The notes beneath the pieces are model-generated. The model saw only the letters and a program-made list of their open reading frames with translations. It searched no databases and was not told the DNA's origin. The translations under genes were made by a program, and so were the position numbers. 64,000 nucleotides of DNA from Escherichia phage chee24: the sequence record NC_047885.1, one strand, 5' to 3'. Below are positions 1 through 6,024 of the stretch, in pieces (position 1 is the first letter of the stretch; each line of letters starts with the position of its first letter).

Positions 1-222
1 GTAAAACATCTTAAATATCGCTTAATCTATAACGGACGTATGGAAACTGAAGAGCTAGCTCAATTAGCTATTAACTCTAATGAGGTTATGGTGCGTGCGC
101 TGGCAATTGAAAAGTTGCGGGCTTCTTATGAAAGCCGTATTATGCGGCTGGAGGAAACCCTTTATGGACTTCTTGAATCAGAAGCTAAAAGCAACCCAGA
201 GGACAGGCCTACTAAGCAATAG
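1..222 (+). CDS. hypothetical protein, probably 3' end of a gene truncated by the window start (alternative ATG start at 40)
   Basis: Reading frame is open from position 1 with no stop before 222; no convincing RBS before the ATG at 40. Confidence 0.3.
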   Translation, partial: VKHLKYRLIYNGRMETEELAQLAINSNEVMVRALAIEKLRASYESRIMRLEETLYGLLESEAKSNPEDRPTKQ

Positions 223-276
223 AAGGTATGCATATAGGGAATAATTTTACTCCCAAAACATTATCGAAGGATTTAA

Positions 277-1116
277 GTGAGGAATTGTACAGTGCGTAGA
301 TTAATTATTATCAGTGGTGCAGGTTTGAGTGTTGAAAGTGGTGTACGAGCCTTCCGTACTGATACTGCTAGTGGTAAAGCATTGTGGGATGATTATGACT
401 TAGAAGAGGTATGTAATATTCATGCCTTTCGTGGTAACTTTTATCATAAAACCCATATGTTTTACAACAAGCGACGTGAAGAGCTAGAAACTGTTGAACC
501 TAACCTTGCGCATCTTCGTATTGGTGAGTGGTATAAGAAATATCCGGGTCAAGTAGTAAATTTGACTACTAACGTTGATGACCTTATTGAGCGTGCTGGT
601 GTTCCCCATAATGATATTCTCCACATTCATGGATACTTAAAGGAGGTTGTTGTAGCTGATAGCTATAATAGTAGCAATAAACGAGTTATTGATGTTGGGT
701 ATAGCTCTATTGACCCAGATGATTATAAATGGGTTAAACCTAATGTAATCTTCTTTGGTGAGCATGCTCCAGCGTACGCAGAAATGTACAATATTTTTGA
801 TGGTATTACTAGTCAAGATATGATCGTTGTAGTTGGTTGCTCTAACCAAGTAATTAATTTCTACTGGGAATTATTTCCTATTCTTAACCGTACTGCTGCG
901 AAACTTATGGTGGTTAACTACTACGATAGTGCCCTAGCGGCAGAACCAGGCTATCAAGGTATGACTCGTAGTGATATGTACCAGTTGGAAGATCGTGGTA
1001 TTCCTTACTGGAGTAAAGGTGCGGTAGATGCTTTCAGTGATCCTGGTTTTATTGCTCGTGTAGAAGCTCATCTAGAGGGTAGACCTTATATGCCGGGAAA
1101 ACAAATATGTCCATAG
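277..1116 (+). CDS. Sir2 (sirtuin)-family NAD-binding protein
   Basis: 279 aa with GTG start 5 nt after AAGGA. Rossmann motif GAGLSVESGVRAFR, TTNVDDL (sirtuin TQNID-like) and catalytic-type HG in LHIHGYL. No CxxC zinc-ribbon pairs, so deacetylase versus NADase cannot be decided. Confidence 0.7.
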   Translation: MRNCTVRRLIIISGAGLSVESGVRAFRTDTASGKALWDDYDLEEVCNIHAFRGNFYHKTHMFYNKRREELETVEPNLAHLRIGEWYKKYPGQVVNLTTNVDDLIERAGVPHNDILHIHGYLKEVVVADSYNSSNKRVIDVGYSSIDPDDYKWVKPNVIFFGEHAPAYAEMYNIFDGITSQDMIVVVGCSNQVINFYWELFPILNRTAAKLMVVNYYDSALAAEPGYQGMTRSDMYQLEDRGIPYWSKGAVDAFSDPGFIARVEAHLEGRPYMPGKQICP

Positions 1117-1289
1117 TTAAATCTGTATATACACATCCCGATGATATATTTGTATGGGCGGATGGTAGTTGGTGCTATCGATGTGAGCTATGGGAAATGG
1201 ACTATAAATCCGATGACTATGGTGTCATATATGTTGATACGGTTGAGTATGATACGTTCTTAGAAAGGGACAAAAATGGAAATAAGTAA
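1107..1289 (+). CDS. hypothetical small protein (60 aa)
   Basis: ATG ORF overlapping the end of the Sir2-like gene and the start of the next gene; compact phage-style packing; no recognisable motifs. Confidence 0.3.
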   Translation: MSIVKSVYTHPDDIFVWADGSWCYRCELWEMDYKSDDYGVIYVDTVEYDTFLERDKNGNK

Positions 1290-1782
1290 TACTCCAATTA
1301 TTTTTCTAGATATTGATGGGGTGCTCAACTCTAGCATCTCCCATCACCATGCACCTGATGATGAGAAGATTTTCTTCGGAAGTGACTGGGTTTTTAAGCC
1401 GCTTCTCAAGGCTTTTCAGGACTTTATTCGTCCTTCTCCAATAATGATTGTTGGGGTATCTTCATGGTTCTCTGTCAGGAATGAGATGGAGAACGTTCAG
1501 ATTATGACCGGATTAGATCTTATCGATCGTTTTCTTGGTACAACGGATTTTACTGGTGGTGGGCTATCTAGGGGTAATTCTGTTCTTCGCTTCGTTGAAA
1601 AGCATAAGCTCAAACATTGGTGTGTGCTGGATGACGCTGGTGCTATGATGTATCAGTATCCAACGGTTATAGTCAACGGTAGAACTGGAATAAATCTTCA
1701 AGATTTAAGAGCTGTTAGCTATATGTTAGAATTTAGTCCAGATCTTGAAATGTGTAAAGCCCTACAACAATTTAAGGTGTAA
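1276..1782 (+). CDS. HAD-superfamily phosphatase-like protein
   Basis: 168 aa; N-terminal FLDIDGVLN (HAD motif I, DxDGx) and C-terminal VLDDAG (motif IV-like); RBS AAGGGA upstream. Confidence 0.55.
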   Translation: MEISNTPIIFLDIDGVLNSSISHHHAPDDEKIFFGSDWVFKPLLKAFQDFIRPSPIMIVGVSSWFSVRNEMENVQIMTGLDLIDRFLGTTDFTGGGLSRGNSVLRFVEKHKLKHWCVLDDAGAMMYQYPTVIVNGRTGINLQDLRAVSYMLEFSPDLEMCKALQQFKV

Positions 1783-1784
1783 AT

Positions 1785-2213
1785 ATGTTCAATAATGTAT
1801 TTTCTAAAGAAGCTAACCCAATATTGGTTAATTTTTGGCGTACTCTTCCAGCCAATCTGTACAATGAGGCTATTAACTCCTTGAAAATATGGTGTGAGAA
1901 TAACGAAATCTCCTTTGCTTTTAAAGATGATATTGATGAGGCTCCCTGTATTGGTTTAATTGTTCAGGTAGAGGAGGGTCTTGAAGAAATTGTCGGTTGG
2001 AAAGAGTTAGATGAAATGGGCTTAGTTTTTGCGTTAAACTATAAGCTGTTTATGCCTGCTAAGCATCGCCTCGTTGTTAACTATAAAACTAGTGAATCTC
2101 CTGGTTTTCAGGTTAATGAACGTTATGGTTGGTCTTACTCACCGGAAGAAGTAAATGAGGGGATTCAGAAACTTCGACATTTCGGGTATATGATCCCAGG
2201 TTTAACTGCTTAA
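1785..2213 (+). CDS. hypothetical protein, member of a tandem paralog pair
   Basis: 142 aa; shares blocks with the next ORF (APCIG / DPCIG, MGLVFALN / MGLIVALN, GYMIPGL / GIYVPGL). Confidence 0.5.
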   Translation: MFNNVFSKEANPILVNFWRTLPANLYNEAINSLKIWCENNEISFAFKDDIDEAPCIGLIVQVEEGLEEIVGWKELDEMGLVFALNYKLFMPAKHRLVVNYKTSESPGFQVNERYGWSYSPEEVNEGIQKLRHFGYMIPGLTA

Positions 2214-2222
2214 GGAGGCAGA

Positions 2223-2615
2223 ATGGAACAAGTATATTGGCGTCAGATTGACCCTAGTTTGGTGAAACGTGCGGAGAAGCTGCTACAACGTTGGTTGGGG
2301 GTAAGACAAGTCTCCTTCACTTTTCCGGAGCAGCAAACGGATGATCCATGCATTGGCGTTTTCCTGTCTGGATATGCCGGGGAATGGGAATTGGATTGGA
2401 ATGAATTGTCTGCTATGGGCTTGATTGTTGCCCTAAACTTCTCTTTGTTCCATCCACGTGGTTTGGCCATATGTCGTGTGCCTGATGATGGTTGTTCGCC
2501 CCATCTTTTACAGGTGGAAGATGATATTTGGGAGTACACTCCAGATATTCTCACAGAAGCTAAAGAACAATTAAATCGTGTTGGGATTTATGTTCCGGGC
2601 TTAAATGATGAATGA
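2223..2615 (+). CDS. hypothetical protein, member of a tandem paralog pair
   Basis: 130 aa; strong RBS TAAGGAGG 6 nt before the ATG; paralogous to 1785..2213; followed by a terminator hairpin. Confidence 0.55.
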   Translation: MEQVYWRQIDPSLVKRAEKLLQRWLGVRQVSFTFPEQQTDDPCIGVFLSGYAGEWELDWNELSAMGLIVALNFSLFHPRGLAICRVPDDGCSPHLLQVEDDIWEYTPDILTEAKEQLNRVGIYVPGLNDE

Positions 2616-2639
2616 TTTTTATTAGCTGAACTCTGATTA

Positions 2640-2663
2640 CCGAGTCATTTTGGCTCGGTTTTA
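2640..2663 (+). terminator. rho-independent terminator
   Basis: Hairpin CCGAGTC-ATTTT-GGCTCGG followed by TTTTA, 25 nt after the stop of 2223..2615. Confidence 0.6.
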
Positions 2664-2706
2664 TCCGTACTCAAGACCAATGATAGCACCATCCGGAAAA
2701 TTTTAC

Positions 2707-2735
2707 TTGCATGATGCCCAAAATCTTGATATAAT
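2707..2735 (+). promoter_or_regulatory. sigma70-type promoter (TTGCAT-17-TATAAT, TG-extended -10)
   Basis: -35 TTGCAT about 2707-2712 and -10 TATAAT about 2730-2735 with TG two nt upstream; same downstream box (ATTTATATTGAATTGAGAG) as the other promoters here. Confidence 0.55.
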
Positions 2736-3234
2736 ATTTATATTGAATTGAGAGACATTAGTAAAAATTGATTTTGCTAATTTTTCTTGTTTACAATCCG
2801 CGATACGGAACAGTTAGGCTGCCCCATTAAGGGTTGTTTTAACTGTTACGTGTTAGTTTTTAAACAAATAGTTAATAGAATACTTAGCGATCTGCGTCCC
2901 GTAGGAACCCTGGTAAGGCCTCGAAGCAACCTAGATAGAGGTGGTTGTGAAGTGAGACGGGAGGAGTGAAAAACTCCGAGACGTGATTCTGTAAGTTATA
3001 TTGCATCTAGTATGAGCTAGTATATGAAGCATTAGGTGAGCAAATCTGGCTTAGCGGCCATCCTCAAGGATTTGTGCGGTATAGCAAAGCAGCAGCGCAG
3101 CGTGAAAGTGGAAGTTGCCACCCCACTTCAGTATTTGCGATTAATTTGTTGAGAAATTGACAGTAACAGTTGTTCTATTCTTTCTGAATAGTCCTAAAGA
3201 AAACTTATTTCATTTCCAACACAGGAGTATTGTT

Positions 3235-6024
3235 GTGTTTTCAATCCTACAAGGTCATGCAGGATTTCATCGCGATTTAGCCACAGGCAATTGGCGAGAA
3301 GTTAAAGCAGAAGATTATCTTTTTGCTAAAAGATTTTCCTCAAAGCATCCTGAAGGTAAACCAGCTTCAATGCCCTTCAAGTTTGATGTAATTGACGAAG
3401 TTGATCCTCAAACCCTAGTAGAAATGCTTCCTCTTATGAGACGTTTAACGTCTGACCCTCATATCGTTGCGGTACGAGGTCGATGTCTTGCACCTAAAAA
3501 TAATGTGCGACGTAAGAAGGGCAACTTTAATGTATCTAATCCAAGTCATATAATCGCAATGGATGTGGATGGTATTGTAGATACAGGAGGTTGTAACAAG
3601 TTTGATCTTGTTGGCATGGCGCGTCATATTATTAGGATGTTGAATAGTATTAGTGAGGATATGTTTCCTCTTGATGCAGGGTTTATTGCTCATGCATCAT
3701 CTTCGGCTGGACTAAAACCAGGTATCCGAATGCACTTAATACTAGAATCTAATGTTAAAGTTACACAGGGCCAGATCAAGTTCTTATTTACATCTATCAA
3801 CGAAAGTAGTAGACAAAAGTATGGTTTTGATATTGCCGACTTAGCTTATTACTCTTCCGTACAGCTCCACTATTTTGCAGATCCTTTATTTACTGATGGT
3901 ATAGTTGATCCGTTTAAAGCGGAGAGTGCTTCACGTCTGGTATTTGTTAAAGGCTCAAAAGTAAATTTACCTAATAATCTAGTTGACTATGAAACAACTA
4001 GAGGAGAGTTTAAAGAGGAATTCTACTCTTTACTCGATCAAATTAAAGGTAAAAAAGCTGCCTCTGATAAAGTAGAGGAAACTATCAGTGAGCTAGAAGA
4101 GGCTGATGATGGGGTATACTTACGTATTATTCCAAAGCTATATCACCGAGCGTTAGAGGATGGGGTAGATTTTGGTTGGCTAGAGAAAGAAATCCGCCCA
4201 GCTTTATCAGAATATATTGCAACTAAAGATAATAGCCGTAATATTCAGGATTATTTCAATAACGGACGGAAGCAGGCATTAAAAGCCTTTGTGAATAACT
4301 CTAAGCGTGAGATCCCTGAAGTATTAAAAGGTATCCCCCTTAAAAAGCTAGAAACTAACTCACTAGAGACCGACAACTTCTTGAAATTAAATACTGTACC
4401 ACCAGAAGGCTATATGACTTTTGTAAAAGCAAGTCTAGGTACAGGTAAAACCACGGCTGTTGTTCGTTGGCTGGATTCAGGGGTTATTAAAGGTAATTTC
4501 TTAGCAATTACCAATACTAGGGCACTAGTGTCTTCAAATGCTAAGAAATTTAGCGCAGGTCAATATGATAAATCTGTAGATATGCTCAACTTTAAACGTG
4601 GGGCTATTGATCGTATGTCCACAACCATTCACTCTTTGCATAAGTTTAAGAGTTTTATTGGTCAAATTGATGCAATCTTTATAGATGAATGTGATGCAGT
4701 AATGAATGACCTATTATTCGCCCCGGTTGTTAAGCAACGTCGCGAGTGTATTCAGGTTCTTCGAGATATTCTTGCAACTGCAAAAATAATTATATTATCT
4801 GATGGAGATATTAGTGCAGAAACAATTGAAGCATATGGTTCTTTGATTGAGTTTGATAAACCAGTTGCATTTTACAATCACCACCGTAAAATGTTATCAA
4901 AGGCTCATGCTTATGAGTTTCCTGATGAATCCAGTATTTGGGTTGCACTTCAAACATCACTAGAGATGGGTGAGAAATCTATTCTAGTATCTGATTGTGG
5001 CCCTGATGAGCTGAATGAGAAGGGTATGGCACTACGTCGTAATACTGGTGCGTTAGTTAAGGAAATCCATTCAAACTCTACCTCAGATGTGGATATTCGA
5101 CGTATTCTGGATTATACAACTAATGAGCTAATTGATCAACAAATTGATTGCTTATTATGTAGTCCATCCGTAACGAGTGGTGTTGACTTCAACTATTTTG
5201 ATAACGTATTCGTTATTACTAGAACCAGTAATCAAGCGCCAAACATGCGTTTTCAAGCAATCAGGCGCGACCGTGGTGCTCAGAACATCTATTATTTTAT
5301 TGATAAATCCACTAGTGGATTCTCCGCAGGTTCTGAACAATATAATATTGATGAAGGTTGGCTGGAGTTAGCACAGCAATTATACGCACGTCGCAGGGAG
5401 CTGGAATCTAGAAACTATACTAGTACCTTACGTTATTACTTGCTTGATCAGGGTGCAACTATTGATATTTTCAGCGAAAGCTGGGGAACTATTGAAGGTG
5501 CTGGTAAAGAGTACACAGAAGAGCGAATCAAAGCTATTCTACATTCAACCCCGGATTATTGTGCTCCACGTCATGCGGATGCGTATGAAGCTAAACTACT
5601 TCTTGTTCGCTATTATCATCTTGAGTCTATTAAAGATGTAACAGTTGAGCATGTTGAACAATATATCAAAGATAAACCGAATGATCGAGCTGCATTCTTC
5701 CATAAGATGCACGAGATGTTCTGGGAAGATATTAAGAAGTGTTCAAATATAACCATTAAACCATTCATAGAAGCTCTAAAAGGTAAGAAAAAGGACTTCT
5801 TCCTTAAAACAGGTCAGAGTGCTAACCCAAAATATGCTAGAATGTATCTTGGTATGATGGGTATCGGTAAGGATATGAACACTGAAAATATCGTAGACTG
5901 GTATAGAACCTACTGCAAAATCGAGTGTATGCCAATTCCTTATAAGTTCATGACTGATGAGGAAAAACATATGCACGATGAAGCAATGTCAGAACTAGGT
6001 GCTAGAAATGACAGTGAAGAATAA
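3235..6024 (+). CDS. replication protein: AEP primase-polymerase-like N-terminal domain fused to a P-loop helicase/ATPase (origin-binding-protein-like)
   Basis: Longest ORF begins at TTG 3157; the likelier start is GTG 3235 (AGGAG 7 nt upstream). N-terminal HIIAMDVDG (AEP DxD-like) and AHASSSAGLKPGIRMH; Walker A SLGTGKTT and Walker B IFIDECDAV mid-protein. Confidence 0.6.
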   Translation: MFSILQGHAGFHRDLATGNWREVKAEDYLFAKRFSSKHPEGKPASMPFKFDVIDEVDPQTLVEMLPLMRRLTSDPHIVAVRGRCLAPKNNVRRKKGNFNVSNPSHIIAMDVDGIVDTGGCNKFDLVGMARHIIRMLNSISEDMFPLDAGFIAHASSSAGLKPGIRMHLILESNVKVTQGQIKFLFTSINESSRQKYGFDIADLAYYSSVQLHYFADPLFTDGIVDPFKAESASRLVFVKGSKVNLPNNLVDYETTRGEFKEEFYSLLDQIKGKKAASDKVEETISELEEADDGVYLRIIPKLYHRALEDGVDFGWLEKEIRPALSEYIATKDNSRNIQDYFNNGRKQALKAFVNNSKREIPEVLKGIPLKKLETNSLETDNFLKLNTVPPEGYMTFVKASLGTGKTTAVVRWLDSGVIKGNFLAITNTRALVSSNAKKFSAGQYDKSVDMLNFKRGAIDRMSTTIHSLHKFKSFIGQIDAIFIDECDAVMNDLLFAPVVKQRRECIQVLRDILATAKIIILSDGDISAETIEAYGSLIEFDKPVAFYNHHRKMLSKAHAYEFPDESSIWVALQTSLEMGEKSILVSDCGPDELNEKGMALRRNTGALVKEIHSNSTSDVDIRRILDYTTNELIDQQIDCLLCSPSVTSGVDFNYFDNVFVITRTSNQAPNMRFQAIRRDRGAQNIYYFIDKSTSGFSAGSEQYNIDEGWLELAQQLYARRRELESRNYTSTLRYYLLDQGATIDIFSESWGTIEGAGKEYTEERIKAILHSTPDYCAPRHADAYEAKLLLVRYYHLESIKDVTVEHVEQYIKDKPNDRAAFFHKMHEMFWEDIKKCSNITIKPFIEALKGKKKDFFLKTGQSANPKYARMYLGMMGIGKDMNTENIVDWYRTYCKIECMPIPYKFMTDEEKHMHDEAMSELGARNDSEE

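Follow-up and report, generated by a model that had tools for sequence, protein, structure and literature searches.

A sirtuin and HAD_SAK_2 phosphatase cluster in an accessory operon of a T5-like phage: a candidate RNA-end-healing module

Sirtuin-centred RNA-repair neighbourhoods have been delineated in phages (Iyer, Burroughs, Anantharaman and Aravind, 2022; PMC9503650, section 3.7.3). The third type is typified by Escherichia phage SP15 and comprises a HAD of the "Swiss-army-knife-like" kind. On computational grounds, the sirtuin was proposed to remove 2'-phosphates from RNA in the manner of KptA (PMC9503650). The stretch analyzed here (the window) comprises 64,000 nucleotides (nt) of Escherichia phage chee24 (NC_047885.1; one strand, 5' to 3'), and positions 277-2615 harbor a cluster of this kind: a phage-clade sirtuin and a HAD_SAK-type phosphatase lie in one operon with no Macro partner, which are the features of a type 3 neighbourhood. 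SP15 is itself T5-like, and its sirtuin is 94.5% identical to that of the window. The analysis established the identity of each gene, the integrity of the catalytic motifs, the layout of the operon, its conservation and its neighbourhoods; the substrate and the chemistry we infer. With somewhat less than even confidence, the cluster is read as a nicotinamide adenine dinucleotide (NAD)-dependent RNA-end-healing accessory module, as published. Both the cluster and this favored interpretation are already in the literature, and the window adds nothing beyond the published annotation and the published hypothesis. The neighbourhoods found here independently reproduce types 2 and 3 of that study. Small additions concern the sirtuin and a 60-amino-acid (60-aa) open reading frame (ORF) as one exchangeable allele, the varying content of the slot in Demerecviridae-like phages, an internal repeat and fusions of the DUF7415 family, and a HAD-rnlA-DUF7415 arrangement in Aeromonas phage Aeh1.

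The sirtuin and the phosphatase

An initial annotation of the region had reported a sirtuin-fold protein, a HAD-like hydrolase and two paralogs. All four are present where it placed them, and both fold assignments are borne out by Pfam matches above threshold. The sirtuin matches PF02146 with E 2.1e-24 (score 86.9 bits, curated threshold 24; residues 14-192 on profile positions 1-178 of 180) and phrog_2162 with E 2e-120. Its residues are numbered here in the 279-aa form that starts at 277. The ORF from 277 to 1116 exists as described; its start is likely GTG 292 instead of GTG 277, because T5 has an ATG there and MF431731 annotates 292. The motifs GAGLS (14-18), AFR (25-27), FYNKRR (62-67), TTNVDD (97-102), HIHG (116-119) and FFGE (159-162) are all recognizable, as is GCSNQ. 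Aligned with CobB, the protein keeps the NAD-binding GAGLS and F26-R27, the nicotinamide-pocket residues N99 and D101, and the catalytic H118-G119. The class III pair Y63-x-x-R66 is also kept: FYNKRR aligns with FYNARR of CobB and is conserved in every phage-clade member aligned (seven sirtuins, from T5, pork27, Mydovirus, 7-11, muut, Sugarland and Vibrio CZ01). In SIRT5 and CobB, this pair recognizes succinyl- and malonyl-lysine.

The Cys4 zinc module is lacking, in agreement with the initial annotation, which had listed TTNVDD, a catalytic HG and no zinc ribbon. The 39 residues between HG and FFGE, the segment into which the zinc cysteines of E. coli CobB fall, contain no cysteine, and the only cysteines of the protein are C4, C46, C188 and C278. 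The Cys4 pattern is missing across the whole aligned phage clade. In addition, the Gln of TQN(I/V)D, present in CobB, is replaced by Thr in six of the seven members (here TTNVDD) and by Ala in the Vibrio phage. A C-terminal extension of about 60 residues (GAVDAFSDPGF...VE-HLE) is conserved in the phage clade only. Residues 174-221, in the region of the C-terminal Rossmann strand, weakly match phrog_18062 (E 3.7e-6), which may reflect a generic Rossmann-like similarity or a contaminated PHROG.

A search for homologs of the sirtuin reached 1002 phage records, among them those of T5-like, rV5-like, Vibrio and jumbo phages. In the PDB it matches best to E. coli CobB (1s5p, E 1.7e-17), Archaeoglobus Sir2Af1/2, Thermotoga Sir2 (Sir2Tm) and human SIRT5, and the best NCBIfam matches are CobB-type models, at 102 bits well under the equivalog cutoffs of 221-395. 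Searches of all five cluster proteins with the PADLOC defence models gave nothing at E<=0.1 except a spurious match to a type I restriction endonuclease (E 0.065). The initial annotation had compared the protein with NAD-consuming Sir2 effectors of bacterial defence (ThsA/DSR/HerA-type NADases). This analogy fails because no PADLOC defence model was matched; moreover, the nearest relatives are CobB/SIRT5-type deacylases, and the deacylase-type His and Y-x-x-R are retained. Judged from its sequence, the region is not a defence-type NAD-depleting Sir2 effector.

The phosphatase matches PF18143, described as "HAD domain in Swiss Army Knife RNA repair proteins," with E 1.8e-20 (74.2 bits against a threshold of 27.5). 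Motifs I (D12-x-D14), II (S62/S63), III (R99) and IV (D119-D120) do not vary among 14-16 homologs, even at identities as low as 32%. Searches against PDB sequences gave no match, either with the single sequence or with a profile. The AlphaFold2 (AF2) model (predicted local distance difference test, pLDDT, 94.5) resembles capless HADs, and as modeled the protein is a Rossmannoid fold of the capless type. Capless HADs usually act on macromolecules; HADs with small-molecule substrates are usually capped.

Gene neighbourhoods and the candidate role in RNA healing

T5-like genomes carry the sirtuin without exception in the slot that separates PhoH/nrdD from the gene of the origin-binding protein, with differing companions. 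Tequintavirus and Epseptimavirus carry Sir2, one or two small ORFs, HAD and two DUF7415 genes; Sugarlandvirus carries Sir2, a small ORF and two DUF7415 genes; contig L021 carries Sir2 and one DUF7415 gene. Two distant T5-like contigs (L012, L013) carry HAD, an unknown ORF, Sir2 and a small ORF, so that the adjacency of HAD and Sir2 is kept with the order inverted, at HAD identities of 38-41%. The survival of this adjacency through a change of gene order makes it reasonable that sirtuin and phosphatase act jointly in NAD/ADP-ribose chemistry, as the initial annotation had suggested. The nearest non-T5 relatives of the sirtuin (57-62% identity) are embedded in RNA-healing and RNA-sealing operons. 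In Mydovirus K45PH128C2 (sirtuin identity 62%) the genes are Rnl1, cREC_REC, an AAA_33 kinase, a 74-aa ORF, Sir2 and an ATP-dependent DNA ligase, with a MazG-like gene farther downstream. In Vequintavirus EdH4 (57.6%) they are Rnl1, cREC_REC and Sir2, with an AAA_33 kinase and a calcineurin-like phosphoesterase in divergent transcription. The phosphatase keeps similar company: in an rV5-like contig its homolog lies at most 5 kb from Metallophos, Rnl1 and AAA_33 genes. Aeromonas phage Aeh1, which is T4-like, has HAD_SAK_2 (p322), two genes, rnlA and DUF7415 (p318), in this order, on one strand within 2.6 kb (L024:15958-18519), and the 77-aa DUF7415 protein directly abuts rnlA (RNA ligase 1).

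RNA healing appears to be the best-supported reading, favored by these neighbourhoods, by the capless HAD and, through analogy, by the chemical parallel between sirtuins and Tpt1. The module would heal damaged RNA ends, most plausibly those of tRNAs cut by host anticodon nucleases or other metal-independent nucleases. The cut would leave a 2',3'-cyclic phosphate, to be opened to a 2'- or 3'-phosphate. The capless HAD_SAK_2 enzyme may then strip the terminal phosphate off the polynucleotide, or may later dephosphorylate ADP-ribose-1''-phosphate. The zinc-less sirtuin would spend NAD+ in an attack on the 2'-phosphate, which would leave as ADP-ribose 1'',2''-cyclic phosphate along with nicotinamide; this is KptA/Tpt1 chemistry. 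His118 would activate the ribose hydroxyl, as in deacylation. In class III sirtuins the Y-x-x-R pair takes up carboxylates; here it could hold the phosphate. The 60-aa protein may be a partner of the sirtuin, because both co-vary as one allele. The DUF7415 proteins might serve as accessory or adaptor subunits, and a host ligase would do the sealing.

A knockdown screen bears on this scheme. In CRISPRi-ART of T5 on a laboratory host, T5.100-T5.106 were scored "Not Fit," and T5.107, the ortholog of paralog B, was one of 17 "Fit" genes, with a marginal value (fitness -2.90, p 0.0215; PMC11879866, supplementary file 16). The screen is insensitive, because the origin-binding-protein gene T5.108 is also "Not Fit" (PMC11879866). 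Dispensability, which the initial annotation took as speaking against its proposal, is thereby seen in part, for T5.102-T5.106 on the laboratory host; "Not Fit" scores on an undefended host fit a conditional repair role.

Several points weigh against RNA healing. In its motifs and best matches (CobB, Sir2Af, SIRT5; His and Y-x-x-R kept), the sirtuin could pass for an ordinary class III deacylase. We know of no sirtuin shown to act on RNA 2'-phosphates, and searches of the literature turned up no study, biochemical or genetic, on a phage sirtuin. T5-like phages are without RNA ligase 1: Rnl1 homologs occur in 827 phage records, only 14 of them Salmonella phages, against about 270 T5-like Salmonella records. 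Since no healing kinase was seen in the cluster either, the pathway would be incomplete without host enzymes. HAD is missing from Sugarlandvirus and contig L021, both of which have Sir2 and DUF7415. In rV5-like phages (L006:4001-7222, L011:6001-9519), a HAD_SAK_2 homolog heads a co-directional run and is directly followed by Prs-like and Nampt genes (NARP2-type NAD salvage), which points to NAD metabolism instead. DUF7415 also turns up away from sirtuin and ligase: Klebsiella T4-like phages have it as a standalone gene between nrdG and nrdD, and it occurs as well in P2-like phages and in elements that bear an integrase. Likewise, the 60-aa family occurs without a sirtuin in Erwinia phiEa104, where it adjoins the DNA polymerase.

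The main rival to RNA healing is a protein deacylase. The sirtuin would be an ordinary CobB-like, NAD-dependent lysine deacylase (deacetylase or desuccinylase) that remodels host or phage protein acylation early in infection, for example of replication, transcription or nucleotide-metabolism enzymes, and the other cluster genes would be unrelated neighbours. This account, a possible one although well short of an even chance, draws on the CobB, Sir2Af1/2, Sir2Tm, SIRT5 and NCBIfam matches, on the retained His118, N99/D101 and Y63-x-x-R66, and on the position of the cluster among nucleotide-metabolism and replication genes (nrdD upstream, Obp gene downstream); it is also the annotation in most records. 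It has to contend with a score of 102 bits, far under every CobB equivalog cutoff (243-320), and with the clade-wide loss of the Cys4 module, which helps to form the acyl-peptide cleft, alongside the Gln to Thr change in TQN(I/V)D. E. coli has its own CobB, and the recurrent linkage with Rnl1, cREC, kinase and HAD_SAK_2 in unrelated phage lineages is left unexplained.

A role in the metabolism of NAD and ADP-ribose metabolites is improbable. The sirtuin would here cleave NAD or an NAD-derived nucleotide (a defence signal or an ADP-ribose conjugate), and the HAD would dephosphorylate nicotinamide mononucleotide or ADP-ribose-phosphate, in counter-defence or to balance pools alongside the NAD-dependent DNA ligase. 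The placement of rV5-like HAD homologs directly upstream of Prs-like and Nampt genes is in its favor, as are the DUF7415 fusions to thymidylate kinase and to dATP/dGTP pyrophosphohydrolase and the location of DUF7415 beside nrdD/nrdG elsewhere. Some T5-like phages, moreover, encode an NAD-restoring NARP3 pair, and NAD supply is therefore under selection in this group (PMC13464706). However, the HAD model is of the capless, usually macromolecule-acting type, and the sirtuin matches no NADase-type Sir2 model and keeps deacylase-type residues. NMNAT and PnuC labels that would form an NARP3-like bracket around the Mydovirus sirtuin were considered and rejected: that annotation is out of register, and Pfam finds Rnl1, cREC, kinase, Sir2 and DNA ligase on the real ORFs. 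The rV5-like association of HAD with Prs and Nampt genes differs from the T5-like one.

A toxin-antitoxin-like pair is very improbable. In it the sirtuin would shut off the host or exclude superinfecting phages as a toxic NADase or ADP-ribosyltransferase, and the 60-aa product of the overlapping gene would inhibit it. Translational coupling and co-variation of the two genes would agree with such a pair, and the 60-aa ORF comes after the sirtuin in Tequintavirus, Epseptimavirus, Sugarlandvirus, Moazamivirus 7-11 and contig L012. However, no such ORF stands beside the sirtuins of muut, EdH4, Mydovirus, the Vibrio phage or L021, the small family also exists without a sirtuin (phiEa104, above), there is no similarity to defence or toxin Sir2 models, and a Macro-domain partner is lacking, as is also reported in PMC9503650.

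A bolder form of RNA healing would make the zinc-less phage clade the first sirtuins to act on nucleic-acid ends rather than as protein deacylases. They would remove or ADP-ribosylate RNA 2'-phosphates in a KptA-like manner, with the 60-aa partner, a polynucleotide-directed HAD and DUF7415 proteins of a new fold, as a ligase-less tRNA-repair counter-defence. We regard this form as doubtful. If RNA repair is true, sirtuins would gain a chemistry that is new to the family, and phages a new route past tRNA-cleaving defences, which would be relevant to T5-like phages in biocontrol; if the deacylase is true, phages rewrite host protein acylation. In either case the clade is present in about 1000 sequenced phage records, with functions that are only predicted.

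Companion genes and the transcription unit

The 60-aa ORF at 1107-1289 is conserved and was overlooked in the initial annotation, which listed real genes but also began the cluster too far to the right: the unit reaches left of 277, where an ORF lies at 40-222 (Table 1). The 60-aa ORF overlaps the sirtuin stop by 10 nt (ATGTCCATAG at its ATG) and the HAD start by 14 nt, and its product has the conserved motif DDI-x-x-W-x-(D/N)G(S/T)WCY. The sirtuin and this ORF co-vary as one allele: their identities are 96/100, 60/55, and 51/53% in T5, EH2 and JLBYU43, and HAD meanwhile stays at 90-99%. A zinc knuckle that might stand in for the lost zinc module was considered and rejected, as C23-x-x-C26 is present but the second Cys is unconserved in homologs. 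T5, EH2 and JLBYU43 have an additional small ORF after the sirtuin, and the window has one only. The T5 version of the additional ORF, T5.103, is weakly paralogous to T5.104 (E 0.0035). The C-terminus of the window sirtuin (PGKQICP) matches the 3' end of T5.103, and window 1090-1116 is consistent with a deletion of about 160 nt, or a fusion, relative to T5. Further identities vary along the region: paralog A is 98% and paralog B 71% identical in JLBYU43, and contig L012 has a sirtuin at 68% with a HAD at only 38%. This mosaic implies frequent recombination at gene boundaries.

The two paralogs share 31% identity over 124 aa (E 8e-21) and match PF24187 with 121.5 and 111.2 bits (cutoff 27; E 2e-35 and 3e-32). 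Each consists of two DUF7415 repeats: there are two Pfam stretches, and a hidden Markov model (HMM) of the core of standalone members also matches the N-terminal half. The family is small, an exhaustive HMM search returning 164 representative clusters only. Its conserved core is WnELS..GLI..IN...HP.GLA, its standalone proteins have 70-100 aa, and some members are fused to thymidylate kinase or to dATP/dGTP pyrophosphohydrolase. The AF2 model of paralog B (pLDDT 91.6) has no solved structural neighbour, and BFVD returned DUF7415 proteins only; a PDB profile search with DUF7415 gave nothing under E 0.9. No experiment on DUF7415 was found in the literature. Each paralog has its own ortholog in Klebsiella phage Sugarland, and the duplication therefore predates the split of Markadamsvirinae and Sugarlandvirus. 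The diversifying selection that the initial annotation read from the duplicated genes is contradicted by this age and by ortholog ratios of nonsynonymous to synonymous substitution (dN/dS) of 0.03-0.25.

All five cluster genes are under purifying selection, with ortholog dN/dS of 0.02-0.25 (Nei-Gojobori; orthologs in T5, ESCO40, JLBYU43 and EH2). A value of 0.79 for the JLBYU43 HAD was discarded as invalid because the gene is split there, into two coding sequences. The cluster DNA is matched in 526 phage records, and PHROG matches of the proteins range from 1e-29 to 1e-120. These genes are real and not chance ORFs, given the strong domain matches, the number of records and the dN/dS values. 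Over bases 1-3200 the window shares 100% identity with Bacteriophage T5-like pork27 (MF431731.1, Tequintavirus chee24) and about 93-94% with many further T5-like phages. In the T5 reference AY543070, the region corresponds to T5.101-T5.107 and 277-2615 to T5.102-T5.107. There, the transcription unit T5.100-T5.107 runs from an annotated promoter after the nrdD terminator to a terminator after T5.107. Window 40-2666 is the distal part of this accessory unit of T5-like phages, and since the window starts inside the unit, the promoter lies outside it, upstream. The genes, all on the + strand, are closely packed, with two overlaps and gaps of 2 and 9 nt: paralog A begins 2 nt past HAD, and paralog B is preceded by a GGAGG ribosome-binding site. 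The terminator closes the unit and corresponds to the one annotated after T5.107. The label "early" for the cluster is inferred from its map position only.

Table 1. Features of the accessory transcription unit in the window.
Feature	Position	Strand	Remarks
60-aa ORF, T5.101 homolog	40-222	+	phrog_5236
Zinc-less CobB-like sirtuin, T5.102 ortholog (96% identity)	292-1116 (likely start)	+	Longest ORF from GTG 277
60-aa acidic protein, T5.104 ortholog	1107-1289	+	phrog_5116
HAD_SAK_2 phosphatase, T5.105 ortholog (99% identity)	1276-1782	+	PF18143
DUF7415 paralog A, T5.106 ortholog, 142 aa	1785-2213	+	PF24187, phrog_2502
DUF7415 paralog B, T5.107 ortholog, 130 aa	2223-2615	+	PF24187, phrog_2502
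Intrinsic terminator	~2638-2666	+	9-bp GC-rich stem ACCGAGUCA/UGGCUCGGU, then UUUUAU

Mistaken annotations spread through the public records. The HAD gene goes by "Sir2" in many RefSeq records, because phrog_18062, which bears that label, is the C-terminal half of HAD (E 1.9e-58). In MF431731 (L001:7486-7782), the call for the HAD gene is confined to its last 98 aa. The feature table of OY978796 does not line up with the sequence of the record, with an "NMNAT" label over the real sirtuin and a "PnuC" label over unrelated ORFs. DUF7415 genes are called "exonuclease" or "tail tube protein" in some GenBank records, labels that are unsupported.

Downstream of the unit, a non-coding gap of about 540 nt (2616-3156) separates the terminator from the origin-binding-protein gene (ORF 3157-6024). 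An extended -10 promoter at 2707-2735 (TTGCAT, 17 nt, TATAAT), read from the sequence, agrees with the promoter annotation of T5 and gives a leader of more than 400 nt before that gene. Shuffled versions of 2740-3160 fold less stably than the stretch itself (z -2.9; 0 of 100 shuffles reach it), and the gap has no Rfam match, no tRNA and short inverted repeats only. The gap might serve as a structured leader or belong to a replication origin. Farther along the window, the GC skew flips sharply from positive to negative at about 24 kb, briefly at about 52 kb and again at about 60 kb, presumably at coding-strand switches between transcription blocks.

Comparison with known systems

The closest described system, the type 3 neighbourhood, has the same genes, and PMC9503650 leaves the 60-aa partner ORF and the DUF7415 pair unmentioned. 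With the defence proteins ThsA, DSR1/DSR2, Sir2-HerA and SPARSA, the sirtuin shares the Sir2 Rossmann fold and the use of NAD. In contrast to these NADases, it has no sensor or partner domain, is encoded by a phage and lies in a metabolic and replication region. Its likeness to CobB and SIRT5 extends to the Rossmann NAD motifs, N-x-D, His-Gly, FGE and Y-x-x-R, but the identity is about 25-30%, the zinc cysteines are gone, Gln is replaced by Thr and the C-terminal extension is added. Among capless HADs, the phosphatase resembles MDP-1, Scp1/FCP1 and UBLCP1 (and, functionally, the phosphatase domain of T4 Pnkp) at only 13-15% identity, and T4 Pnkp is not among its top 60 structural matches. KptA/Tpt1 is proposed as a functional analogue only. 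Both enzymes would transfer ADP-ribose from NAD to an anionic oxygen; an attack by the ribose 2''-OH would come next. Both occur in contexts with RNA ligase and cyclic-phosphate-processing enzymes. However, KptA has a fold of the ART superfamily (PMC9503650), to which the sirtuin fold is unrelated.

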